In this document: piece by piece, positions 7,513 to 38,694 of the stretch
Numbering within the stretch: position 1 is the first letter of the stretch
How the letters are laid out: each line of letters opens with the position of its first letter
Virus record (IMG/VR): IMGVR_UViG_3300047491_000179
Coordinates: 1-42,027 of that record
Length of the DNA stretch: 42,027 bases
Strand: one strand, 5' to 3'
DNA from: a virus
Lineage: Duplodnaviria; Caudoviricetes
The notes under the pieces: model-generated
The model's database searches: none
The model's input: the letters and a program-made list of their open reading frames with translations, nothing else
What the model was told of the DNA's origin: nothing
Translations under genes and position numbers: made by a program

Positions 7513-8334
7513 CTACAAAACTGCTGTAAAACTCACGCCAGCGTTGAAGTAGGCGAACCGAGCATCTAACCACCGTGAGCACTGCGCTATACGCGGCTGT
7601 CTGTGGTGTTTTGAAATACCAAGGTACTTCTTGAATGCCACCAGACTAACCTTCACGTCTTTCAGGTTCAGGTACTTGCCCTTAGCGGTATCCACCAGAC
7701 TGAGCATCAATACAACCCAATTCAAGACCTTGTCCGCTTCGGTCGTCCCGCTGTGCTGGCGAAATTCAATCGTCCCATGACGCCCGTAAGCGCACAAATT
7801 CACTTTATGGTACCGCATATCATTCGCATCATAGTCCCACGGTCTTTCAAACATCTCAATGACGTCAGTGACGACTTTGCTCTTGCCCTGCCTTGCGACC
7901 CGCATGAACTCGCTGACTGAACGGCAATATCTGTTCGCGTTCCCTCTCCGGCTTTCAGGAACTATCGCATCAAACATCTTCTCCCAACGTCCGTAAGCCG
8001 CTGTGACTGACGCTATTTCTTTTCGGCTCATATCACGAGCGTCAACATGAACGTGCAGACCGCACTTTTTATCGACCTTCGCACCAATCAACGTCAACGC
8101 TTTGCACACTTTCTCGACTTGATTGAACCCGTCCTCGCCACCTAAAACAGGGCTGACCACTTCAAAACCCGCCGAAGCGTCTGTAATCACCTTCCAATGT
8201 GTCTTGGTGGAGTGGTTGTAGCCTTCTGCGAAAGCCTGAACGCCCGCGTCTCGAATTGCTGACGCAATCTTTTCTTGTGACAACCCGTCGGTCAAAACCT
8301 CTATTTCAACTCCAAATTTGCGCTCGATATTCAT
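7513..8334 (-). CDS. Putative amidoligase enzyme (COOH-NH2 ligase type 2)
   Basis: FGVEIE, WKVITDAS, EVVSPVL, CGLHVHV, RYHKVNL, TIEFRQHSGT; start MNIER at 8334. Confidence 0.88.
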   Translation of the reverse strand: MNIERKFGVEIEVLTDGLSQEKIASAIRDAGVQAFAEGYNHSTKTHWKVITDASAGFEVVSPVLGGEDGFNQVEKVCKALTLIGAKVDKKCGLHVHVDARDMSRKEIASVTAAYGRWEKMFDAIVPESRRGNANRYCRSVSEFMRVARQGKSKVVTDVIEMFERPWDYDANDMRYHKVNLCAYGRHGTIEFRQHSGTTEADKVLNWVVLMLSLVDTAKGKYLNLKDVKVSLVAFKKYLGISKHHRQPRIAQCSRWLDARFAYFNAGVSFTAVL

Positions 8335-8386
8335 GTCTGGCTCCTTTTTTTTATGAAACGCTTGTCCGTTTTGCTTACCTGCCTTT

Positions 8387-8415
8387 ATCATACCACCTTT
8401 TGTATATACATACAA
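8387..8415 (-). promoter_or_regulatory. Early promoter
   Basis: TTGTAT-17-TATGAT with extended TGG and TGTATATACA. Confidence 0.7.
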
Positions 8416-8529
8416 GTGTACTGGTAATACTGGTTTTACCCTAAAACACGAACACTCCAATAGGAGTGTTTGTTCATTTAAGTATCGTCTAGTTTATCTC
8501 ACGCTGTTTGTCGCATAATTAAAGCGACA

Positions 8530-24664: not shown

Positions 24665-24797
24665 CGCCAACCTCCTTGGCATCACGCTCTGCTTTTTTAT
24701 GCCCGTATGGCGCAGTAATCTCTTCGCCCCAAATCCGTGCCGTGGCTTGATTTGCTGTTTGTTTTTCATTTCGCTCAGGTGTATTCTTTTTACTCAT
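24609..24797 (-). CDS. Possible 62-aa protein directly after MuF-ART
   Basis: ATG overlaps the end of MuF; hydrophilic; overlaps the next gene by 56 nt. Confidence 0.35.
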   Translation of the reverse strand: MSKKNTPERNEKQTANQATARIWGEEITAPYGHKKAERDAKEVGDDTNGMEHKKTPVDKQAG

Positions 24798-26130
24798 AGG
24801 TTCCCTCAATTAGCATCGTCTCTCGATTGTTTTTCGTATATTTGCTGATAGCCGTAATCGTGATTTTAGCGTTTCTAGGAAGCAGAACCTCAGCTTCGGT
24901 GTTTATTCTAGACAGGTTGTTGGCATTGAGATATGCCGCTTTCGCGCCAGCCTTCGCTATGATGTTAAATTCTATACGGTAATTATTAGCGCTTAAGAAA
25001 TCATCTATCACACCACTCACCGCGGTTGTAGATAAGAATCCTTTGTCCCATATCGTGTCGCCAACTTTCACGACTCCATTTTCGATGTCGTTGTATAACG
25101 GCTCATGCGCTGTACCGCGTTTCAATAGTACGTCAAAGGGCAACTGGGTTTTATCAATCGCCGCGTCCAAAAGCTTTGTCTGCTTGGCCGCGTCAGGATA
25201 CCTAGGGTTACTGTAATCTTCATCTCTAGCGCAGGCGTTTATGCCTCCATATGCAATACCCGTATAATCCGAGATTGCAGTTTGCTCGTCAAATGTAAGG
25301 TTGTCTGCCCATTGTTGGTACGAAGGTATCAATGCTAAGTCCGCGTCATCCACGTCGGCGTATTCTTGATACTGCCCATCTCCCTGTGGTGCAGACAGCG
25401 GCTCAGGTGGCACATTTTCTGCAGCTATAGCGTTCGCCTCTGTTGTCTCCGTAAAACTCATTTCGCAGTTGCACCTTGGGTGCATCGGCGGCTTGATGTC
25501 GTAATCGCTTAGTTTGTATGGCGACTCGCTAGCCTTGCTTGCGCAGTCATCACAAGTATTTTCATAAAGAGGAACCCAGACCCAATGGTCCACGCCTATT
25601 GTTTCCATAACATCCGTCATTACTAAAGCCGATAGCCGTGTCGTTTCTGTTATCGCGATACTTCTCGCTCGCTTTTCATCGAATAGTTTGCGCATTCTTG
25701 CCTCTAACGCTTCCCAATCCTCTTTAGGGTCGACTACCCATTCAGCGATGCCAGTTCGCAATACGTCCTGCGTGTTAGCCGTTATACCATCTATGTAAAT
25801 GCCCAAAGTATTTGCATAGTATCGCATTTTGTCGGCTACGTCATACTCAAAATCTTTGTTTTTGTCATGCCAGTACTCTTGTTCGGGCGTCACTATAGTT
25901 TTTGCCGCTCTCGAAAAAGCTTCTGTCATTCCTTCTTTGAATGTAGTACTCCATTCTTCCCAAACGTCAGGATTATCGAACATGTCTTTCTTCAGGGTTT
26001 TCATGCCTTTGAGTTCTGCTAATACCACGCGCCATTGCTTTTGCAACAATCCATACGCGGCATCATACACCTGACGCTCTGCTTCTTTACGCGCCTTCTT
26101 CTTTTTGTTTCTGCGTATGGTTTCCTTCAC
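24790..26130 (-). CDS. MuF/SPP1 gp7-like minor head protein with C-terminal VIP2-like ADP-ribosyltransferase
   Basis: RARSIAITETTR, PPMHPRCNC; YT...INA, LKRG, GFLSTT, EAEVLLPRN. Confidence 0.9.
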   Translation of the reverse strand: MKETIRRNKKKKARKEAERQVYDAAYGLLQKQWRVVLAELKGMKTLKKDMFDNPDVWEEWSTTFKEGMTEAFSRAAKTIVTPEQEYWHDKNKDFEYDVADKMRYYANTLGIYIDGITANTQDVLRTGIAEWVVDPKEDWEALEARMRKLFDEKRARSIAITETTRLSALVMTDVMETIGVDHWVWVPLYENTCDDCASKASESPYKLSDYDIKPPMHPRCNCEMSFTETTEANAIAAENVPPEPLSAPQGDGQYQEYADVDDADLALIPSYQQWADNLTFDEQTAISDYTGIAYGGINACARDEDYSNPRYPDAAKQTKLLDAAIDKTQLPFDVLLKRGTAHEPLYNDIENGVVKVGDTIWDKGFLSTTAVSGVIDDFLSANNYRIEFNIIAKAGAKAAYLNANNLSRINTEAEVLLPRNAKITITAISKYTKNNRETMLIEGTYE

Positions 26131-26132
26131 GT

Positions 26133-28646
26133 TTACCCTTGCATATTCGGCATCACGCCCGTTTCCAATAATAACTTAGCTCGTTCTAAAGCTTTATCCT
26201 GCGCTGTTTCTCCAACGAGCTCTTTGATTTCATCCCACACCGCTTTATCTTTGACACAAGCCTTCAACGCCATGACGACCTCTTTTGGCAGTTGCTTGCC
26301 AGCCATCGCTTCCACAAACGGGCTTGTCTGTAAATAATCGTCTTCGGGAAACCCCAGACCGTTATCAATTAATATCATTCGCTTGTCGTCGTCTGGATGC
26401 GTGCGATAATTTCCTGTATGCCTGTCGGTTTGACACATAATAAAATCTAATGTGCCAGCTTTCGCCACCCATAGCGTGTCGTATTCGCTCACGTCCTCAG
26501 ACGGCTTTGAGCCTTTCACGTAATACACCACAGCACCCGCTTCCTTGTTGTACTCGGTAACGAATGCCACAGGCACAAGATAAAATTGCAATAATCGGTC
26601 TAACAAATATGCGGCTTCTTCCCTCAGGTATTGCCCACCGCCAACACGCTCAATTAATGTATCGACTTCGCCACCCTCTGGCTTCCATAGCGCAGGTACA
26701 GGTGTCATCCCGTCTTGTTTCAAAGCAACAATGTCGAGCGAATTTGCATGGTGGTCGTTCGGATACGGTATATCCGCAATGTTCACAACCTGAGCCCCAT
26801 AATAGCCATCATCTTCTGCTGATACGCCCACGCCTTTCTGCGTTTCCACCAACTGGCTTAGTAAGGTGTAATAGCTCGGATTCTCTTTTAGATGCGCTAA
26901 CGCAATACGCCCTTCTATCATCGGGTCGCCCTGCGTAATGTCTTCGTGCTCTTGCTCTTCCTGCAACCCCAACCTAAATTGCTCGAGGTCTATTTCATCC
27001 CATTTCACGCCAAGCGCATCTCCTATTTCCCTAGCCCTCGCTGTATTTATTTTAGCTTTTGGAGCAAACTTTCCACCGTGCTGGTGCGGGTGTTGCATCT
27101 GTACGCTTATGAATTTGGTTGTTAGTCTGCCATCATTCAGCATCGTTGCGGCACTATCACGGTTCTTTTCGTCTTGCTCCGCGTCCTTCTCTTTTTCTCC
27201 AGACGCGAGATAATCGCTAAGTTTTATCAAACCCCCACCAGACACCATGAACCGTTCATCGCCACCGTCTATCGGTTCTCTGCCCATCTCGGACAGCGCA
27301 TCGTTCAACGTAATGACGCCTGACCTAAATAAGTCCAATGTATTCTTGGTGTGGATTTGTGGGTCTATATTCTCTGCCACCTGTCCCAGCTCGAACTTGT
27401 CTGTAATCCCAAACCTGCCGAATATCTCGTTGAGGCATCCTTCTAGATATAGCTTCAACGGTGACAATCCCATGCGATACAACGTGTTTTGCATCATGTC
27501 GCCGAAGCCCTTCCCACCCAAGCCAGAGCCAGGCATCTTCCCCCACTCTGACGGAGGTATGCCGTAAGCCAAACTTAGGTTATCTCTTGCCTGCTCATAC
27601 AATGTTTTCGGGAAGTCTGGCTTCTTCGTAGGTACGTAATTGAACCCGCTCGGCACCAGTCTAATGCGATTCCTTTCCGCTAAACCGCTCATCTGTCTGG
27701 CGTTTATCGTCTGTTCGTAGAGGTCTATCTGCTCTAACGTCCAGCCCTCAGGCGCTTGCATAAGCCCTTCCGGCATGTTCCCTTCCCTGTAATGCGCTAA
27801 CTCAAAGCCTGAGATGTTTGCGATTATAAGCACCCATGCCCATGACATTTCTATAGGTGACATTCCATACGGCGCGTTATAACGCCGGAACCGCGGCCTG
27901 TACCACATTTCATCTTGCGAGTACCACCCGAACGGCGTTCCTTTTATGACCTGCACAAACGCTGGCGTACTAGGGGCTTTGAATAGATTATTCACATCCA
28001 AATACTTGTTTAATTTACTCTGGTAGTCTGGCGCATTTATGATAACCGGGTCTTTTGCGTCTGGTAGTGGAAGCTCGCCGTGCTGGTCAACAAGCACGAA
28101 GATTGTACTCCCGTCCACATATCTAAGGTTTTTCAGTTTTCCGAGCGTTTGTTCTATGTACAACGTCCCCGCGTCAAACACCAGCGCGGATTGCAAGAAT
28201 CTAGATGCCCACACAGTAAATGGGTTGACGCCGTCGGGTCTATCCAAGAATCCCTTATAAGGATGGTCTACAATTTGATTACCGTCTTTATCCACAAACC
28301 TTGGCGTAAAATTCGTGACTTCCTTCACCAACGTATTTACACACATCCTGATTTCTGATACATTCTCATAGGCTTCCGCAAGAGCGGCAAACGGCATCAG
28401 CCCGTAATTTGTCCGTGGTTGTATCGTTGCATTCACAGCCACAGGATAATCTATTTCTCGCGGTATGCCTTCCTCTATCGGATGGCTTATCGGTCTGATG
28501 GGCCAGCCCGGCGCATACGTTGTCTGTAACCATGCATCTGGCAACGGTGCCACATTTGGCTTAGGTGCTGGCGGCACCGGAGCTGTCGGTATTGGCACCT
28601 GCATTACTTGTGCCATAGCTTTCAATATGTCATTACGTATGCCCAT
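26133..28646 (-). CDS. Portal protein with C-terminal DUF5661-like and kinase-like domains
   Basis: LRYVDGSTI, YGMSPIE, GNMPEG, AYGIPPSEWG, GVITLNDA...PIDGGD; then EEQEH...IALAHLKE.P.YY; WKP, REEAAYLLD, DRHTGN, LIDNGLGF. Confidence 0.88.
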   Translation of the reverse strand: MGIRNDILKAMAQVMQVPIPTAPVPPAPKPNVAPLPDAWLQTTYAPGWPIRPISHPIEEGIPREIDYPVAVNATIQPRTNYGLMPFAALAEAYENVSEIRMCVNTLVKEVTNFTPRFVDKDGNQIVDHPYKGFLDRPDGVNPFTVWASRFLQSALVFDAGTLYIEQTLGKLKNLRYVDGSTIFVLVDQHGELPLPDAKDPVIINAPDYQSKLNKYLDVNNLFKAPSTPAFVQVIKGTPFGWYSQDEMWYRPRFRRYNAPYGMSPIEMSWAWVLIIANISGFELAHYREGNMPEGLMQAPEGWTLEQIDLYEQTINARQMSGLAERNRIRLVPSGFNYVPTKKPDFPKTLYEQARDNLSLAYGIPPSEWGKMPGSGLGGKGFGDMMQNTLYRMGLSPLKLYLEGCLNEIFGRFGITDKFELGQVAENIDPQIHTKNTLDLFRSGVITLNDALSEMGREPIDGGDERFMVSGGGLIKLSDYLASGEKEKDAEQDEKNRDSAATMLNDGRLTTKFISVQMQHPHQHGGKFAPKAKINTARAREIGDALGVKWDEIDLEQFRLGLQEEQEHEDITQGDPMIEGRIALAHLKENPSYYTLLSQLVETQKGVGVSAEDDGYYGAQVVNIADIPYPNDHHANSLDIVALKQDGMTPVPALWKPEGGEVDTLIERVGGGQYLREEAAYLLDRLLQFYLVPVAFVTEYNKEAGAVVYYVKGSKPSEDVSEYDTLWVAKAGTLDFIMCQTDRHTGNYRTHPDDDKRMILIDNGLGFPEDDYLQTSPFVEAMAGKQLPKEVVMALKACVKDKAVWDEIKELVGETAQDKALERAKLLLETGVMPNMQG

Positions 28647-29890: not shown

Positions 29891-29919
29891 AATATATACC
29901 ATTCCTGTTCATCGGTCAA
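29891..29919 (-). promoter_or_regulatory. Candidate promoter for head genes
   Basis: TTGACC-17-TATATT. Confidence 0.45.
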
Positions 29920-31381
29920 CTGGCAGTTTCACGCCTGACTTTTCACTATACTCTAACAAGTCCGCTGGTACGCTTTCTGCCCTGATTACTCCTTTTTTGT
30001 ATCGCTCAAGCTCTTCGCTCGTTACCGTATACGGGCTTGCAAGTTCGTTGAACGCGCCACTTGTCGCATCCATGATGTCGTCGTGCTTCATGTCGGGTTG
30101 TGAATGCATGTGGTTTATCCATTCATCATTCCATGAGCCCGCCAACAAGTACACGTTCCCAGCCTCTGATTGAGCGGCAAATGGCTTCGCTCTCGATATT
30201 TTGTCACCGCTTGGGGCAACACCCCTTGCGTCAAACCCGATAAGCAAACCCGCAATATACAAGCTGTCTCTTTTGCCGCTCGCGCCACCTTCGCGCTCCC
30301 ACCTGACTACGTATCTTGTCCCCATCTTACTCGCCTCGTATAAATCCTGCCTCGCAAGGTTGGCAATCGCTCTGTCTGTGTCCGTAGGCGATATCCTTTG
30401 CGCCGTCATGTCCAGAACGTAAAACTTACCATCCACAAACCGCATTTTTACGGACGCGGTATAGTCGGGGTCACTTCCCTTGAACTTCGCCTCGGTAGCG
30501 GCTAAATCCCAAAAACGGCAATCAACACCGCCGTTCGGTACTGCGTCTACGATTTTATACCATTCTCGGTTGAACAACTTGCCCTCCGCTTCGCGTATCT
30601 TCCAGTTCCCGCCTCGTATTGGGTCGCCTAACAACCTCTCTCTATCCACCAATGGCAATGCCTGCAACGACGCCAAATAGCCCGGGTCTTTCGCAGTAAG
30701 TATCGGATTGTCATAGATAGTGAACGGCACAAACGTGACTGTCTTTGGGTCTTTATCTGGGAACTGCTCTCTCAACTCCTGTTTCGTGTCAGCCCAATAC
30801 ATCTCTCCGTTATCGCCTCGCACAAACGCGCGTATCTTCCCCGCCCTCTCCATGTCTGCGTACCCGTCGGGCGCTATCCACCAATCCAAAAATTTTGCCA
30901 ACCAATTCGGCTCTGGGTTCGCGGTAGCTCTTAGGTACGAGTTGACACTACACACGCTCCTGTTCCTCGACAACATGTAAAAGAACTGCCTCTCGGTAAA
31001 CGTTTCTAACTGGTCGAACATTAGCAACGCGACCTGCGCCGATTTCCAATTGCTTAATGATTGCTCGTTGGTTAAATGCCCAAAACCTATTTTGGACTTC
31101 GCGAATCGATACTCCAACTTACCAGCGTTCGGCACACCGCCGAACATTGGGTATAGTTCGTTCGCGTAATCCCAAACGCCACCTGTTTTTGTAATTTCTG
31201 GGTATGTCCGTCTTAGCATGACGGAATTAAATTTGTTTGTCTGGAAATGGCGCAACGGCTCCAATAACAATGCGTAAGTTTTTCCCCCGCCAGCGGCACC
31301 TCCCCCTATAGCTATGTCCGCTTCACTAGCTAAGAACTCCTCTTGCTTGTCATGTAGCCGAATCTCAACATCGTCATTCAC
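29909..31381 (-). CDS. terL: Terminase large subunit
   Basis: GGAAGGGKT, LRRTYPEI, ATANP, FWDLAA, DYTA, HDDIMDA. Confidence 0.93.
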   Translation of the reverse strand: MNDDVEIRLHDKQEEFLASEADIAIGGGAAGGGKTYALLLEPLRHFQTNKFNSVMLRRTYPEITKTGGVWDYANELYPMFGGVPNAGKLEYRFAKSKIGFGHLTNEQSLSNWKSAQVALLMFDQLETFTERQFFYMLSRNRSVCSVNSYLRATANPEPNWLAKFLDWWIAPDGYADMERAGKIRAFVRGDNGEMYWADTKQELREQFPDKDPKTVTFVPFTIYDNPILTAKDPGYLASLQALPLVDRERLLGDPIRGGNWKIREAEGKLFNREWYKIVDAVPNGGVDCRFWDLAATEAKFKGSDPDYTASVKMRFVDGKFYVLDMTAQRISPTDTDRAIANLARQDLYEASKMGTRYVVRWEREGGASGKRDSLYIAGLLIGFDARGVAPSGDKISRAKPFAAQSEAGNVYLLAGSWNDEWINHMHSQPDMKHDDIMDATSGAFNELASPYTVTSEELERYKKGVIRAESVPADLLEYSEKSGVKLPVDR

Positions 31382-31763
31382 GCTTGTTGTCCGGTAAATA
31401 CAATGTGACTTTTACAGGCTCAGTTGTTCTCAAACTCACATCGCTCTGCACTTCGGTTCTTTCCACCCATCCGCATTGGGTTTTCAGGAAGAATATCATA
31501 GCTGTCACATGCCCCTGCACGTTCGGGTCTAAACACGAACGATAAAACTCGCTTTCTACCGCGTCCTTCATCTCGTCACGCGAATCTTCCATGACTTCTA
31601 ATAGCTTCTTATGCGCAAATATAAATCTCCGCACATGGCTTCGTGACCAGCCGACCGCTTTTGCTACCGACGACACGTTACCACGCTTCTCTTTGATTTT
31701 AGCTTCCAGCAAAGCAACGGTTAATTTCTTCCTTTTTATGGTGTCCTTTTGTTCTTCTGACAT
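31374..31763 (-). CDS. terS: Terminase small subunit
   Basis: HTH GNVSSVAKAVGWSR, AMIFFLKT..GWVE; directly upstream of terL. Confidence 0.8.
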   Translation of the reverse strand: MSEEQKDTIKRKKLTVALLEAKIKEKRGNVSSVAKAVGWSRSHVRRFIFAHKKLLEVMEDSRDEMKDAVESEFYRSCLDPNVQGHVTAMIFFLKTQCGWVERTEVQSDVSLRTTEPVKVTLYLPDNKRE

Positions 31764-31779: not shown

Positions 31780-32496
31780 CTAAAAGCTCAAACTCACCGT
31801 GTACTCTGAGTTTTTTCTCGCTATTCTGTGAATGAAGCCGGGATACATCTTTATCAGCATCTCGATTGCCTGCTCTTCTACTTCGTGCGTTCGATAATCC
31901 TTGCATCCTCCCTCATCCTCCCAATGGCTGTTCACCCAATATACGTATCGTATTCCCGCCAGACCGCCGTCCTCTTTGATGCAACGTAGGCATATCTCGT
32001 AGTCTTCCTTGACCTTAAATCTTTCGTCGAACCGTATCCCTGTGTCATTTCTGATGCCCATCATCGACGCGGTGACATACGTCCTGAAGTTTATCGGCTT
32101 GTATGGAAAGGTTCCCTTCAAGCTACCGTCTGTGTTCACACCCCATATCCGGTAATTCATTTGCTCGGTGAGGTCGAACATACGTATGAACTCTCTCTCC
32201 CATTGTTCGCTCGTCATACTGTACGTTTTTGCAAAACTCTCGAATAGCCGAAAGTACCCCTGTACCTTTACGTCATCGTCGACCATGACAACCCAATCAT
32301 CATTACAATTGTCGAGTACCCAATTTCTTGTAGCTGTAATACCCTTTACGCTTGAAGGCACGCCGACAACCCTTTCACCATAAACACGAACATAATCATC
32401 ACGCTCATATTCAGGCACGAATAGCACACCGTTCTTTAGTATCTTGAGCGTTTTGACGCGTCCTGCTCTGCCTTTACTTGGTATCGCGATTAGCAT
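31780..32496 (-). CDS. TAGT/GREB1-like GT-A glycosyltransferase
   Basis: IAIPSKGR, RNWVLD, MVDDD, KEDYEICLR, EGGC. Confidence 0.8.
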   Translation of the reverse strand: MLIAIPSKGRAGRVKTLKILKNGVLFVPEYERDDYVRVYGERVVGVPSSVKGITATRNWVLDNCNDDWVVMVDDDVKVQGYFRLFESFAKTYSMTSEQWEREFIRMFDLTEQMNYRIWGVNTDGSLKGTFPYKPINFRTYVTASMMGIRNDTGIRFDERFKVKEDYEICLRCIKEDGGLAGIRYVYWVNSHWEDEGGCKDYRTHEVEEQAIEMLIKMYPGFIHRIARKNSEYTVSLSF

Positions 32497-33121
32497 TGAC
32501 CCGCTCCATAAACTTCTCTGCCGTAATCAACCGCTCTGCTCCAGCGTCATTGAAAGCCGACCCCTCTTTGTATCCCCCACGCCTAACCATCCCCAATCCT
32601 AAATAGGCTCGGATAGCGTCAAAATCCTCGTTTGTTTTGCAAACAATCATCACGTACTCTTGCTCTGGCAATAACTGCACAGACCGCTTCAGCAAAACCT
32701 CTTCGGTTTTATCCTCGACTTCTTTATGTAACTTGTCTAACGTGTAAACAATCCCCTCATTTTCGGTTTGTATGCCATCTATCAGACTGTTCAAAGCTTT
32801 CTGGTCTGCATCTGCCATTTCTGCAATCGGGTCTAGTGTCGCAAGCACTATATCTTCTTCCTCTGGCGTAAGCTTGACATACTTCACGGGGACTTCCTTT
32901 TCTTTATGCTTTTTAGCAAGCTCATACCGCAAGTGCCCGTCAATGAGATTTCCTGTTACTTCATTCACAATCAATTCCTGCACCCAACCGACGGTTTCCA
33001 ACACGCCGCTCAATGCAACTTGCTGATATTCTGGATGTAGTCGCCAGTTTTTAGGGTTTTTCTTAATATCCTCTACGGGCATAACTCCGTTACCCGTAAT
33101 TCGATTTCTCCACTCAGCCAT
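32474..33121 (-). CDS. ParB-N domain protein
   Basis: NPKNWRLH, GWVQELIVN..TGNLIDGHLR. Confidence 0.88.
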   Translation of the reverse strand: MAEWRNRITGNGVMPVEDIKKNPKNWRLHPEYQQVALSGVLETVGWVQELIVNEVTGNLIDGHLRYELAKKHKEKEVPVKYVKLTPEEEDIVLATLDPIAEMADADQKALNSLIDGIQTENEGIVYTLDKLHKEVEDKTEEVLLKRSVQLLPEQEYVMIVCKTNEDFDAIRAYLGLGMVRRGGYKEGSAFNDAGAERLITAEKFMERVNANRDTK

Positions 33122-33974
33122 TTCTCACCGCCCACTCCTGCAACTGTTTCCACTTGGGTTCGTCACCCTTGAACGCGTTTTCTATAATCTCTGCCGTCTC
33201 TGCCGGAACGCCCGACACGTCAAATATATCACGCAACGGCACCCACTCTTTATCCACCTCTTGCCCGAGGTATTCAAGGCACACCCTACTCATCATACCC
33301 AATATCACACCGAACGCGTGAATGTCATACTCTTTTCCCAACCGACGAATCAGGTACTTCAACAGCTTTATCCGCTCTAACTCGGCATGGTACATCTCGG
33401 TTTCCTCTAATGAGAAATTCTCTACCATTTGTTCGCAAGCTTTCTTGAACAAAGCCTCATCACTAGGAAAGAGGTTTATCCATATCGTTTTGTACTCTAA
33501 ACCCAAGTCTACCGTTTCGGCACGGGCTTGTTCTAGCTTCTCGTACAAAGCATTGGAATCCAAGAACGCCTCCAGCCTCGACTCGATGTCACTAATCGTC
33601 TCGTATATCTCTTTCAACGTGTCTGGGTCATCCGACCCCTGAATGGAATTATGCGCCAACTGCTTACCTTTTATCTGGTCACGCGACAGGTTAGACACGT
33701 CGACCAACACAAACAACTCTTCTAATCCAGCCATCTTGGCGGCTCTCACCCTGTGATGCCCTGAAACAATTTCGATAGTCTGCTTACCACCGTTATCTTT
33801 AAGCGCGCAAAACGGGACAGACTCCAACCTTCCATCCCGCCCTATCGTCATCGCCAACCTTTGTATCGCATCGCCTGACATCACCCGAGCGTTTTTGTTC
33901 TGCTCCCGCAGTTCGTTGATGCTCGCTTTCCACAACTCTAACCCATGCCCTAATTCGTACACTTTCTCAGCCAC
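33114..33974 (-). CDS. ParB-N domain protein
   Basis: KNARVM, IVSGHHRVRAA, QLAHNSIQG. Confidence 0.88.
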   Translation of the reverse strand: MAEKVYELGHGLELWKASINELREQNKNARVMSGDAIQRLAMTIGRDGRLESVPFCALKDNGGKQTIEIVSGHHRVRAAKMAGLEELFVLVDVSNLSRDQIKGKQLAHNSIQGSDDPDTLKEIYETISDIESRLEAFLDSNALYEKLEQARAETVDLGLEYKTIWINLFPSDEALFKKACEQMVENFSLEETEMYHAELERIKLLKYLIRRLGKEYDIHAFGVILGMMSRVCLEYLGQEVDKEWVPLRDIFDVSGVPAETAEIIENAFKGDEPKWKQLQEWAVRNG

Positions 33975-35346
33975 GCGATTTCTCCTTCCACTTTTCTAGC
34001 CAATCGCTCAATAGTTCACCCCAATGTTTTCCATTCCACTCGGTTTCATACTGCAAAAGGAAGCCACCGTTCTTTTCTTCTCGCTTTATCAACTTCATAA
34101 CGCCCCTGTCGGTTTTACCCTCGTGCCTCTTTGTGGGGCTGGATGTCCTGATACCTTTAGGCTCGCGCATCTCGAGGATAATGTACTTCGAGAGTATCCA
34201 ATCCCTAAAGTCAACACTCGTCAACATAAGCATAAATAGCTTACCTATCCTCATATATCTTTCGCACGTTTTGCTTATGCCATAGACTTCATATATGTAC
34301 TCGACCTTACCCAAATACACATCACGCACAGCCAGCCCCCACACGGTTGTAACCCTACCGTCTATCAGCATAACACCGTTCAAATCCGCAACCGTCAAAC
34401 CTAACCCGTGAACAAACAAATCGCGGTAATACTCAGCTTCATTGGCTTTGATTAACTCAAAACTTATCTTGCTGTCTGGCCTGATTTCCTGTTCTTGATA
34501 TATCTCGTATGGAGCGGTTGGCACTTTTTTGACGGTATTCTGAATAAACCTATCGTCCAAATCCCTGTTTGTCAGAACGTATGAAGTCCTCTTCCCTCTA
34601 ACCTCTGCGAACACTTTGTGCCATTTGTCGCTGAATCTGTCAGGATAAGATGTCCATATGCACATCAAAGATGGCACATTGGTCATGCCGTCGAACGTTT
34701 CACTTAATTCATTTGGCCCCAATTCTTTTATCGGCTCCGGTTTCCAACCGAGTAAAGTTGCTGGGTCTTCATACGATTTTGTGTATACCCTGCTCCCACT
34801 AGGCGGGGTCATATAAAACAACGTGTTCCCTTCGATTGCTTTCATCTCAGTTAGCACGTCACGGACGTCCCTTCTTTCGTACTTCAACCCAGCGAGCGAC
34901 GTCCTCATGTCTATCAAATCCCTGACCATGTTATCCACATAAATTCTTGCGTTGGTTTTCAATTCCCTCTGCACCGACGCCATGTACGGGTTTTTCGGCT
35001 GTACCCTTAAATAATGTAAAGCTAACAAATACCACGCGGTGTATTCCATATCACTCGCGCCAACAGGCGGTGCAAAGCAACCCAAGCTGTCGGGCATGGA
35101 TAGATTTAGAGACCGCACGTTTTTGCTCCCGTCTAAACAGTACCCTATCAATGTGGAAAACAACGAGAAGTCACTTGTTTCGATTTTACTGGCAGGATAA
35201 CCCGCCGACACCAACGCACTCACCGTCGAGAACGAGCCGACGCATGGGTGTATGACGCGCTCTGGATTAGTCGACGAAACAAGCGCGGACATAAACTGCC
35301 GCGCTTTAGAATTTGTAACACCCTCGAACAAACGGAATGGGTTCAT
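33967..35346 (-). CDS. Degenerate DNA adenine methylase-like domain fused to a putative GNAT-like domain
   Basis: Motif I-like IHPCVGSFS, ETSD, motif IV-like FYMTPP; C-terminal VMLIDGRVTTVWG...YMRIGKLFM. Confidence 0.5.
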   Translation of the reverse strand: MNPFRLFEGVTNSKARQFMSALVSSTNPERVIHPCVGSFSTVSALVSAGYPASKIETSDFSLFSTLIGYCLDGSKNVRSLNLSMPDSLGCFAPPVGASDMEYTAWYLLALHYLRVQPKNPYMASVQRELKTNARIYVDNMVRDLIDMRTSLAGLKYERRDVRDVLTEMKAIEGNTLFYMTPPSGSRVYTKSYEDPATLLGWKPEPIKELGPNELSETFDGMTNVPSLMCIWTSYPDRFSDKWHKVFAEVRGKRTSYVLTNRDLDDRFIQNTVKKVPTAPYEIYQEQEIRPDSKISFELIKANEAEYYRDLFVHGLGLTVADLNGVMLIDGRVTTVWGLAVRDVYLGKVEYIYEVYGISKTCERYMRIGKLFMLMLTSVDFRDWILSKYIILEMREPKGIRTSSPTKRHEGKTDRGVMKLIKREEKNGGFLLQYETEWNGKHWGELLSDWLEKWKEKSRG

Positions 35347-35357
35347 AATATCTATAG

Positions 35358-35430
35358 TCCGGACGGGACTGTCTTGACAGCCCGTTTCTTCACCGAGTGG
35401 TGAAGCGTACTAGCCCTATACGACGTCCGG
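35358..35430 (-). ncRNA. tRNA-like cloverleaf RNA (tRNA-Glu-like) with non-canonical anticodon and T loops
   Basis: CCGGACG TC GTAT AGGGCTA GTAC G CTTCA CCACTCGG TGAAG AAAC GGGCT GTCAAGAC AGTCC CGTCCGG A; all four stems pair. Confidence 0.75.
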
Positions 35431-35856
35431 TCAGAACAGCGTCATCTGCTGTATCGTTGGTTTTCCCTCCACGATTTCTTGCGCTACGACGGGGTCATAC
35501 TCCTCAATCACTTCTCCCGTCCGCTCCTGCCACCACTCCGCGAAATACCGCCTGTGGCACGTTTTGCCTTCCTTGATGTTCTCGAAGCACAATAATACCA
35601 AATCTTTGCCGTCGTTGCGTTTGCTGACCACATTTAAATACCGCTTGATTTTATCTACACCATACATGTCTAACTTAGCCCAATACTTCGCCTTGAAGTT
35701 ATCATTCCACGGTATACCCCACGGCGCCAGCATACCGCATGACTCCGTCACCGCAAAACCCGTAGGAAATTTTGGCTTGTACATCGATATTTGTACCTTG
35801 ACCGCGTCAAAATTCTTCAACTCTTTGCACGTGAACCGACTGGTAAATATCTTCAT
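35431..35856 (-). CDS. DUF488-family protein
   Basis: MKIFTSRF, LAP, LVLLCFE...CHRRYFAEW; probably a leaderless start at 35856. Confidence 0.8.
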   Translation of the reverse strand: MKIFTSRFTCKELKNFDAVKVQISMYKPKFPTGFAVTESCGMLAPWGIPWNDNFKAKYWAKLDMYGVDKIKRYLNVVSKRNDGKDLVLLCFENIKEGKTCHRRYFAEWWQERTGEVIEEYDPVVAQEIVEGKPTIQQMTLF

Positions 35857-35862
35857 ACTCAC

Positions 35863-35891
35863 ATGATACATCTTTCTGCATATAAATGCAA
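35863..35891 (-). promoter_or_regulatory. Promoter for the modification/packaging operon (predicted leaderless transcript)
   Basis: TTGCAT-17-TATCAT, 6 nt before the ATG. Confidence 0.6.
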
Positions 35892-35980
35892 GTAAATTGG
35901 TCTAAACAGCCGCTATTTATGCAAACTACGCCCGTATTCTGGTAATATCGGGCATAATTTGCAATTGCTATATCACTCTA

Positions 35981-36457
35981 TCAATCGCCTTCGTATTTCG
36001 GCGGCTCTGGCAACTCCATCCACTCCAAAATAACCTCCTTTATCCACCCCCATTTATCTTTTTGCTTGTCGTAACGCGACACAACAACGACATCTTGCGG
36101 ACTTGCCTCAAACTTCATGTGAAGCGCGTAAAGCCCGCTCCTCAATGGAGCCTCGGTGATTTTGTGCCAAGTCATGTTCCCTAAACAATAATCCGCTAAC
36201 ACCTTAGTCGATTTCTCGCTATCGCCACGCATAATATTTAATGCCATCTGCGCAGACAACAAATCGACTTTCATTTGTTCGTTTACTTCACGGAGTCTTT
36301 CCAACTCATGTACTATGCTATAGGTCACCCGAATTGGGTCAACACGTGTTACGGTGCCGTCCGCAGACCATGCGCCCAACATAGCGTTTAATATCGCTCC
36401 AACAACAGCAACCTCTTCTTTGCATCTATCCTGATTGCTTCTGCCTATCTCGTCCAT
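35981..36457 (-). CDS. Hypothetical protein with DUF551-like C-terminus
   Basis: Ends VILEWMELPEPP. Confidence 0.65.
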   Translation of the reverse strand: MDEIGRSNQDRCKEEVAVVGAILNAMLGAWSADGTVTRVDPIRVTYSIVHELERLREVNEQMKVDLLSAQMALNIMRGDSEKSTKVLADYCLGNMTWHKITEAPLRSGLYALHMKFEASPQDVVVVSRYDKQKDKWGWIKEVILEWMELPEPPKYEGD

Positions 36458-36470
36458 CTGTCGCTCCTCT

Positions 36471-36507
36471 GCAAATCAAGTTGGCGAAATTCGCCAACTT
36501 GATTTGC
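36471..36507. repeat. Perfect inverted repeat with 18-bp arms
   Basis: gcaaatcaagttggcgaa-a-ttcgccaacttgatttgc. Confidence 0.9.
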
Positions 36508-38663: not shown

Positions 38664-38694
38664 GGACGGGTTGGCGAAATTCGCCAACCCGTCC
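38664..38694. repeat. Perfect inverted repeat with 15-bp arms, sharing its core with 36471-36507
   Basis: ggacgggttggcgaa-a-ttcgccaacccgtcc. Confidence 0.9.

Follow-up and report, generated by a model that had tools for sequence, protein, structure and literature searches.

A conserved tRNA-Glu derivative beside a phage Dam-like/GNAT gene: a candidate private aminoacyl donor for DNA modification

What use does a phage have for a tRNA-like RNA whose loops appear unsuited to decoding, encoded between two genes of a putative DNA-modification cassette? The question is raised by a stretch of 42,027 nucleotides (IMG/VR record IMGVR_UViG_3300047491_000179, hereafter the window), a phage record of about 44% completeness whose minus strand encodes capsid, portal and terminase proteins. 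A preliminary description had placed such an RNA at 35355-35430 and had offered three functions for it: a dedicated aminoacyl donor, a decoy for anticodon nucleases, or a processing signal. The family data presented here fit the first option best and the other two poorly. The favoured reading, with a probability of about 0.58, is that the phage encodes a conserved derivative of tRNA-Glu as its private source of glutamyl groups, which the GNAT domain of the adjacent enzyme would attach to the DNA of the phage itself, probably to adenine. The neighbourhood of the RNA comprises the following genes.

35431..35871, minus strand: DUF488-N3a-like gene; its stop codon abuts the RNA, and its start may be at residue 6, at about 35856
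33967..35346, minus strand: fusion of a Dam-like domain (residues 7-263) and a GNAT-like domain (291-452); PF22555 E 3.5e-27, PF22559 E 1.6e-14; phrog_7858
33114..33974, minus strand: ParB-like partner (PF02195 E 3.6e-5, phrog_7405 E 3e-49), overlapping the end of the GNAT gene
32474..33121, minus strand: second ParB-like protein (phrog_620 E 1e-17)
31780..32496, minus strand: TET-associated glycosyltransferase-like gene (PF20691 E 1e-16)
29909..31763, minus strand: small and large terminase genes, directly downstream of the cassette

All cassette genes in the window are open frames, and the arrangement is that of the PF22555/PF22559 cassette: both domains score above the Pfam cut-off, a ParB-like gene lies downstream, as it does in most clusters of homologues, and a DUF488 gene is nearby. 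The DUF488-like protein matches PF22751 below the cut-off (E 3e-4), and Atlas clusters that carry PF22751 match it as well (score 0.95, TM 0.70-0.85). Scans for promoters and terminators stayed at shuffle level (9 vs 7.7; 4 vs 4.5). Stop-codon read-through from the DUF488 gene into the GNAT gene was considered and rejected: the 84-nt spacer is in frame but holds two stops, and the spacers of 14 loci share no conserved frame. Upstream of the cassette, a perfect 19-bp palindrome occurs twice in intergenic DNA (36480-36498 and 38670-38688; 0 expected from 100 shuffles) and is likely an operator or a promoter/terminator element. The glycosyltransferase gene, which has its own ParB-like neighbour (31780-33121, minus strand), may belong to a second modification and may glycosylate either the base targeted by the cassette or a different one; no TET/JBP dioxygenase was found among the scanned ORFs of this incomplete record. 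Elsewhere on the minus strand, 24790-26130 encodes a minor head protein in a MuF-like position with a C-terminal ADP-ribosyltransferase domain (PF03496, E 6.5e-24), 26133-28646 a portal protein followed by DUF5661 and a further C-terminal region that is kinase-like by eye, and 7513-8460, far from the cassette, an Amidoligase_2 gene (PF12224, E 1.6e-39).

The RNA itself has the following parts.

35355..35430, minus strand: non-canonical RNA derived from tRNA-Glu(CUC), 73 nt up to the discriminator, then genomic CTA
35424..35430, minus strand: 5' strand of the acceptor stem, starting with C1 (partner strand 35359-35365); the first pair is C1:G72, where host tRNA-Glu has G1:C72
35407..35421, minus strand: D-arm with G10-C25, U11-A24, A12-U23 and U13.G22
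35388..35405, minus strand: anticodon arm, with CUC in an 8-nt loop that lacks U33 and A37 and can close to a tetraloop
35384..35387, minus strand: variable region of 4 nt, with A46 present and base 47 absent
35366..35383, minus strand: T-arm with G51.U63, U53-A61 and an 8-nt non-TTC loop

The preliminary description had reported a 73-nt minus-strand cloverleaf, and each of its stems and loops is found in the sequence: the acceptor stem CCGGACG/CGTCCGG, U8, the D-stem GTAT/GTAC, the anticodon stem CTTCA/TGAAG with its 8-nt loop CCACTCGG, the variable region AAAC, and the T-stem GGGCT/AGTCC with the T-loop GTCAAGAC. Sequence and ORFs also bear out its placement. The 5' end at 35430 is the first base past the TGA of the DUF488 ORF (35431-35871), the discriminator A at 35358 is followed by CTA, and the ATG of the enzyme gene lies 11 nt past the discriminator. 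The RNA folds into a four-way junction at -34.3 kcal/mol (z -4.09; 1 of 200 shuffles equally good), and all 21 cloverleaf pairs have probabilities of 0.86-1.0. In the minimum-energy form the anticodon loop closes to a tetraloop, as had been proposed, and so does the T loop (-34.3 vs -22.0 for the strict cloverleaf).

The 7/4/5/5 stems and U8 of canonical tRNA (RF00005) are present. The loops depart from the canonical pattern, a 7-nt anticodon loop with U33 and purine 37 and a TTCRA T-loop on a G53-C61 pair: the anticodon loop has 8 nt and no U33, and the T-loop is non-TTC and sits on U53-A61. The bare 7/4/5/5 skeleton occurs at two window sites when both strands are scanned, at the RNA and at 32429 inside the glycosyltransferase gene, so that the skeleton alone is weak evidence. 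A pseudo or undetermined call had been expected from tRNA-finding programs. In fact ARAGORN called no tRNA gene in the whole window and missed the element even at a relaxed threshold, and Rfam gave no match at 35355-35430 at E<=10, but a covariance model of homologues did recover it. This model, built from 30 homologue RNAs aligned by sequence alone with the window RNA left out, matched exactly 35355-35430 with filters off (43.8 bits, E 5.3e-10; runner-up 10.4 bits); under default filters the match disappears. Because ordinary host tRNAs reach 40-69 bits on the same model, the score identifies a tRNA derivative only, and the claim of a family rests on position. Two lake-water metagenome DNA assemblies match 33000-36500 without difference and may be the window's own source. 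Two runs labelled as RNA yielded no coverage, a result uninformative about expression.

Position was assessed among homologues of the enzyme from IMG/VR (38 loci), GTDB genomes (19), metagenomes (80) and GenBank phages. Of 139 loci, 35 were dropped because their genes were partial or less than 150 nt of upstream DNA was available, and the 104 near-complete ones formed 37 protein clusters at 70% identity, the window counted; matches at L135, L130 and L127, being ordinary or downstream tRNAs, were left out of the counts. In 31 of the 37 clusters the 500 nt upstream of the Dam-like/GNAT gene contain a tRNA-like gene, and widening the interval to 2.5 kb raises the count to 33, while 4 of 37 have no RNA in the available DNA. 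Double changes occur in 19 of 21 pairs, and across 30 RNAs 91.7% of alignment cells are paired, against 62% after shuffling and 41-52% with slid partners. Homologous loci thus contain the cloverleaf with compensatory changes, as the preliminary description had anticipated, and the cloverleaf at 35355-35430 is real and conserved. Among the first 59 loci, default ARAGORN finds a tRNA just upstream of the enzyme gene in 19, with Glu(CTC) the commonest type; together with the determinants discussed below, this supports the earlier assignment to Glu.

The linkage is not uniform. In the largest cluster, 40 Terriglobia-type loci, an RNA is found in 4 of 40, 1.3-2.4 kb upstream and right behind DUF488, and 36 of 40 have none nearby; in one genome of this type a DUF488 gene and an RNA form a pair on another contig. 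Tandem RNA pairs occur in single cassettes at L024:1519-1674, L027:2796-2964 (with differing loops) and L311:1282-1430. A single-sequence scan of IMG/VR gave no close relative of the window enzyme, which sits on a long protein branch (1.38); its relative P0002 stands at 51%. Unannotated tRNA-like genes precede the Dam-like/GNAT gene in cultured or named phages as well, at L254:2835-2908 (Clawz), L255:2833-2906 (Soos), L059:4355-4429 (ValentiniPuff) and L058:3747-3823 (FP_Brigit). The RNA is absent from the annotation of these four records and appears as an ordinary tRNA-Gly in the records of Jeon, Argie and Taptic.

The company that the RNA keeps bears on the best-surviving alternative, which is itself improbable: the RNA could be a partner or substrate of the DUF488 protein, an uncharged cofactor of a DUF488/Dam-GNAT/ParB complex, or a charged donor to an acceptor other than DNA, such as a virion protein. 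It begins 0-60 nt past the DUF488-N3 stop in 11 of 36 RNA-bearing groups, and when the genes are separated it is sometimes found beside DUF488 rather than GNAT (L089, L092, L107, L150, L197, L223, L236), with the GNAT gene 0.6-2.2 kb off or, in L150, missing from the locus. Against a DUF488 partnership, no more than 120 nt separate the RNA from the GNAT start in 29 of 36 groups, and it keeps this place in loci where DUF488 is 0.5-2.1 kb away (L015, L049, L063, Jeon, Clawz, Soos). An uncharged cofactor would have no need of synthetase determinants that persist and track the GNAT clade. A non-DNA acceptor gains from the fact that the case for DNA consists of the Dam fold and the linkage to the terminase genes.

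Which tRNA features the family has kept is informative. In E. coli, U34, U35, C36 and A37 are strong tRNA-Glu determinants, U11-A24, U13-G22:A46 and the absence of base 47 are major ones, and G1-C72 and U2-A71 are weak, as described in PMC9976931. Of this bacterial set, the window RNA has U11-A24, U13-G22:A46, no base 47, U35 and C36. The elements named in the preliminary description are therefore all there, but the E. coli set is not complete, U34, A37, G1-C72 and U2-A71 being replaced by C34, G37, C1:G72 and C2:G71. C34 itself also occurs in host tRNA-Glu(CUC) genes of the control genomes, and A12-U23 in the D-stem is a double change relative to the family's C12-G23. Among the 36 RNA-bearing groups, 31 have U11:A24, 26 have U13:G22, 31 have a variable region of 4 nt and 27 have A46; the loop contains CUC or UUC in 28 and lacks both in 8. 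Two features had escaped the preliminary description, namely the loss of G53-C61 and a family-wide inverted or mismatched first pair (C1:G72 in the window): G1:C72 is found in 0 of 36 groups (C:G 15, A.G 12, U:A 8, U.G 1).

Features read by the ribosome have fared differently. Just 4 of 36 groups have a canonical anticodon loop. This loop and the T-arm are both canonical, and the D-loop has its GG, in 1 of 45 distinct subfamily RNAs against 54 of 67 control tRNAs, a comparison between phylogenetically related sequences whose significance is overstated, yet the gap is large. The controls come from five host genomes, T5 and Bxz1, with the L143 array and all class II, His and Pyl tRNAs left out; they were identified with ARAGORN at its default settings, a search biased towards canonical tRNAs. 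The sequence features thus show the pattern of a non-proteinogenic donor, with synthetase determinants kept and decoding and EF-Tu features altered, and the homologues lend support to the earlier view of an RNA apparently kept for charging and withdrawn from decoding. The CTA in place of CCA, taken earlier as a further sign of withdrawal, does not carry that meaning: CCA is encoded in only 21 of 36 related groups, CTA also in 4, and CCA in only 16 of 33 host tRNA genes, so that the window's CTA is unremarkable.

Variants within this subfamily include 5-7-nt T-stem insertions or a 20-nt T-loop hairpin in L049/L050/L051 and L101/L102, whose Glu cores are otherwise intact. The L073, L089, L092, L107 and L150 clade combines a Glu-type D-arm with an A1.G72 mismatch and CUG in the loop; a non-discriminating GluRS would be expected to charge such RNAs with glutamate, and amidation, which requires U1-A72 according to PMC9976931, would not follow. 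The cassettes of L010, L011, L012 and L014 lie beside an archaeal-looking replication-factor-C-like gene, and their RNAs have CC in the loop and A73.

The full-length partner enzyme was modelled with AF2 (pLDDT 86.9). Residues 5-263 adopt a Dam fold, with Z 12.6-13.6, rmsd 4.2-5.3 and about 200 aligned residues against EcoDam, DpnM and Mcbe1 (EcoDam 4rtm: Z 13.6, rmsd 4.2, 198 aligned). Active Dam-type methyltransferases carry the motifs FxGxG and (D/N)PP(Y/F). These motifs are degenerate in the window enzyme, which has PCVGSF, and TPPS for NPPY, and they vary across the family. NCBIfam gave no match for the enzyme, and the Mom family PF25680 none at E<=0.1. Aligned with Mom by hhalign, the GNAT domain did not reach significance, either as a single sequence (E 0.51) or as a profile (E 0.15), the latter alignment placing H313 near H58-Y59 of Mom; an Atlas link between the two (0.85) is a lead only. 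The GNAT profile had no match among PDB sequences at E<=10, and the domain modelled alone by single-sequence AF2 is of low confidence (pLDDT 38.5). Foldseek rows for the GNAT part are weak (E 2e-3 to 8e-3), and full-length searches are dominated by the Dam domain; the absence of Mom among the structural hits is uninformative.

Both partners in the window are divergent, which invites the reading that the family works as proposed while this particular copy is a decaying relic, the phage using host tRNA or no longer modifying its DNA. The window copy is, by its sequence, among the most derived members, with the most derived loops, U53-A61, invisibility to ARAGORN even when relaxed, and an enzyme with TPPS for NPPY on a long branch. 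The RNA may charge poorly, since it lacks U34 and A37, its 8-nt loops prefer closure and its protein partner sits on that branch. Decay is nevertheless doubtful, and less probable than the DUF488-centred alternatives: all 21 pairs are intact, the D-stem carries a double change, all four core Glu determinants are kept, the cassette genes are all open, and the 8-nt anticodon loop recurs almost unchanged in L028.

Transfer of an amino acid from the RNA by the neighbouring GNAT domain gains weight from two further clades, in which the RNA type, as assigned from sequence, follows the enzyme clade. In the Brigit clade (FP_Brigit and relatives) an RNA is found in 38 of 38 searched loci (80 fetched). 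It is of Lys type, with A73 and CUU in 13 of 13, C1:G72 in 12 of 13 and a T-stem bulge in 13 of 13; six RNAs of the clade, cut (L206), distant (L197/L203/L211) or Gly-like (L247/L248), were left out, and so was the cut RNA of L275. Those at L247/L248:2284-2355 (U73, UCC) are Gly-like RNAs within an otherwise Lys-type clade, and the beta-4 sequence of their GNAT domain is changed. The third type is Gly. Cluster W mycobacteriophages carry a lone annotated tRNA-Gly(TCC) immediately before the Dam-like/GNAT gene, and the report on this cluster (PMC5356062) does not link the two. An unannotated Gly-type RNA occupies the same place in the Gordonia phages Clawz and Soos (Gordonia CP; 26.6 and 27.7 bits), although Soos is described as free of tRNAs in PMC11008160. 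A single-sequence scan with the Jeon protein found no IMG/VR loci; an alignment scan recovered them, with an upstream RNA in 50 of 80 Jeon-clade loci and none in 30 of 80 under default filters. The 30 distinct Jeon-clade RNAs all have U73, and 28 have G1:C72 and C2:G71 (the other two were parsed one base off). All 25 of the seven-base loops have C36, whereas base 34 varies freely (U in 20, A in 3, C in 2) and drift is seen at positions 33 and 37, as would be expected if a synthetase, not a codon, reads the RNA. The canonical loop, T-arm and D-loop GG occur together in 0 of 13 Brigit-clade and 2 of 30 Jeon-clade RNAs. Across the three clades, the pattern is that of an RNA that keeps the parts read by a synthetase and loses those read by the ribosome.

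On the enzyme side, GNAT residue M372 is present in 34 of 34 aligned subfamily proteins with non-Gly-type RNAs and lost in three lineages with Gly-type RNAs (L006, L008, L037; U73, CC in the loop) and in the RNA-less L136. S410 is found in these four and in 25 of 25 Jeon-clade proteins, and also in 4 of 24 Glu-type proteins. L010, L011, L012 and L014 (CC loop, A73) were classed apart and keep M372; their GNAT domains have R/E at 411/412. The tracking of RNA type by M372/S410 is suggestive only: it emerged post hoc from about 160 columns, the lineages that switched are long branches, and the YRDLF motif was fixed by the search pattern.

The clade-by-clade conservation of amino-acid identity elements also weighs against a cis-acting role, in which tRNA-processing enzymes would cut the operon RNA at this punctuation mark and so tune expression of the modification genes. 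The close packing of the RNA between the flanking stop and start codons (0 and 11 nt away) and the frequent location of the RNA at gene borders would suit such a role. tRNA-processing enzymes prefer the T-loop and CCA, precisely the parts that drift in this family, and the RNA floats in position and occurs in the tandem copies mentioned above, which makes punctuation quite improbable. Least probable of all is an anti-defence tRNA, a decoy or cleavage-resistant replacement directed at anticodon nucleases in the manner of the T5 tRNAs against PARIS: phage tRNA variants do counter PARIS (PMC12409363) and altered anticodon loops could resist nucleases, but a replacement must be translation-competent (T5 and Bxz1 tRNAs are canonical in 25 of 34 cases, against 1 of 45 subfamily RNAs), a decoy should retain the target loop, and either would leave the tie to one enzyme family unexplained.

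From the observed RNA structure, linkage, determinant pattern and clade tracking, a route for glutamyl transfer to phage DNA can be proposed. The RNA gene and its cloverleaf are kept together with the enzyme gene, and the RNA retains synthetase determinants while the ribosomal features of its anticodon loop, T-arm and D-loop are gone. It would be expressed as part of a late transcript, have its ends trimmed by RNase P and 3' nucleases of the host, receive CCA and be charged by host GluRS. EF-Tu and the ribosome would largely ignore it, and its first pair, other than G1:C72, would allow the phage enzyme to distinguish it from host tRNA-Glu. By analogy with Mom (PMC13219725), the GNAT domain would then move the aminoacyl group to DNA, the Dam-fold domain probably binding the DNA and presenting an adenine rather than methylating it, with ParB as a putative helper comparable to that described in PMC13229309. 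The mark would block restriction before packaging, and Lys or Gly would be used likewise in other clades. A broader proposal, held tentatively and at somewhat less than even odds, is that of a widespread system in which a swappable private tRNA sets the amino acid (Glu, Lys, Gly, perhaps others) that a Dam-fold/GNAT enzyme adds to viral DNA. The products would be aminoacyl bases not yet described, in the window phage glutamyl-adenine or a rearranged form, and the RNAs would be the first non-proteinogenic tRNAs encoded by viruses and dedicated to DNA chemistry.

If correct, this would provide a third reason for phages to carry tRNAs, besides codon supply and anti-defence, and would explain the lone tRNA-Gly of the cluster W mycobacteriophages. 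It would also predict new DNA bases modified with amino acids, the side chain of each being legible from the sequence of the RNA, and would supply natural enzyme/tRNA pairs outside translation that are usable for DNA labelling. Many such RNAs are invisible to standard annotation, and cultured carriers make the idea testable: Jeon, Taptic and Argie on M. smegmatis, Soos and Clawz on G. rubripertincta, and ValentiniPuff.

tRNA-dependent DNA aminoacylation, non-proteinogenic tRNAs and the protein cassette are each already known, the last as Pfam families (PF22555 DAM-like-phage1, PF22559 GNAT-phage-like and PF22751 DUF488-N3a) and phrog_7858, entries that carry no function. The openly accessible main texts searched contained no counterpart of a donor tRNA that a virus encodes alongside a DNA-modifying enzyme, in Glu, Lys and Gly versions, and no description of a tRNA tied to the Dam-like/GNAT cassette. 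T5 anti-PARIS tRNAs are likewise phage-encoded variants of altered sequence (PMC12409363), but mostly have canonical loops and form large arrays, whereas the RNAs described here are single and tied to one enzyme. ParB homologues that activate phage DNA-modifying T-dioxygenases (PMC13229309) resemble the present system in the ParB-like helper beside a post-replicative DNA-modifying enzyme; the chemistry described there is different and involves no tRNA. The phage Mu protein Mom (PF25680) is closer, as a GNAT-type phage enzyme linked to the late phase and packaging, for which transfer of glycine from Gly-tRNA to adenine N6 is described (PMC13219725). According to the same source, Mom is a free-standing GNAT that accepts any of the three host tRNA-Gly isoacceptors and needs no private tRNA, whereas the GNAT domain in the present family is joined to a Dam fold, is partnered by ParB and DUF488, and comes with an altered tRNA gene beside it, of Glu, Lys or Gly type. 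The closest parallel for the RNA is the non-proteinogenic tRNA-Gly of staphylococci, which, as described in PMC6103715, retains charging, has C37, and thus a pyrimidine at this position, binds EF-Tu weakly and serves the GNAT-fold Fem ligases outside the ribosome. That tRNA is chromosomal, specific for Gly and directed to peptidoglycan, whereas the RNA described here is viral, occurs in several amino-acid types, lies beside its enzyme gene and probably has DNA as its acceptor.
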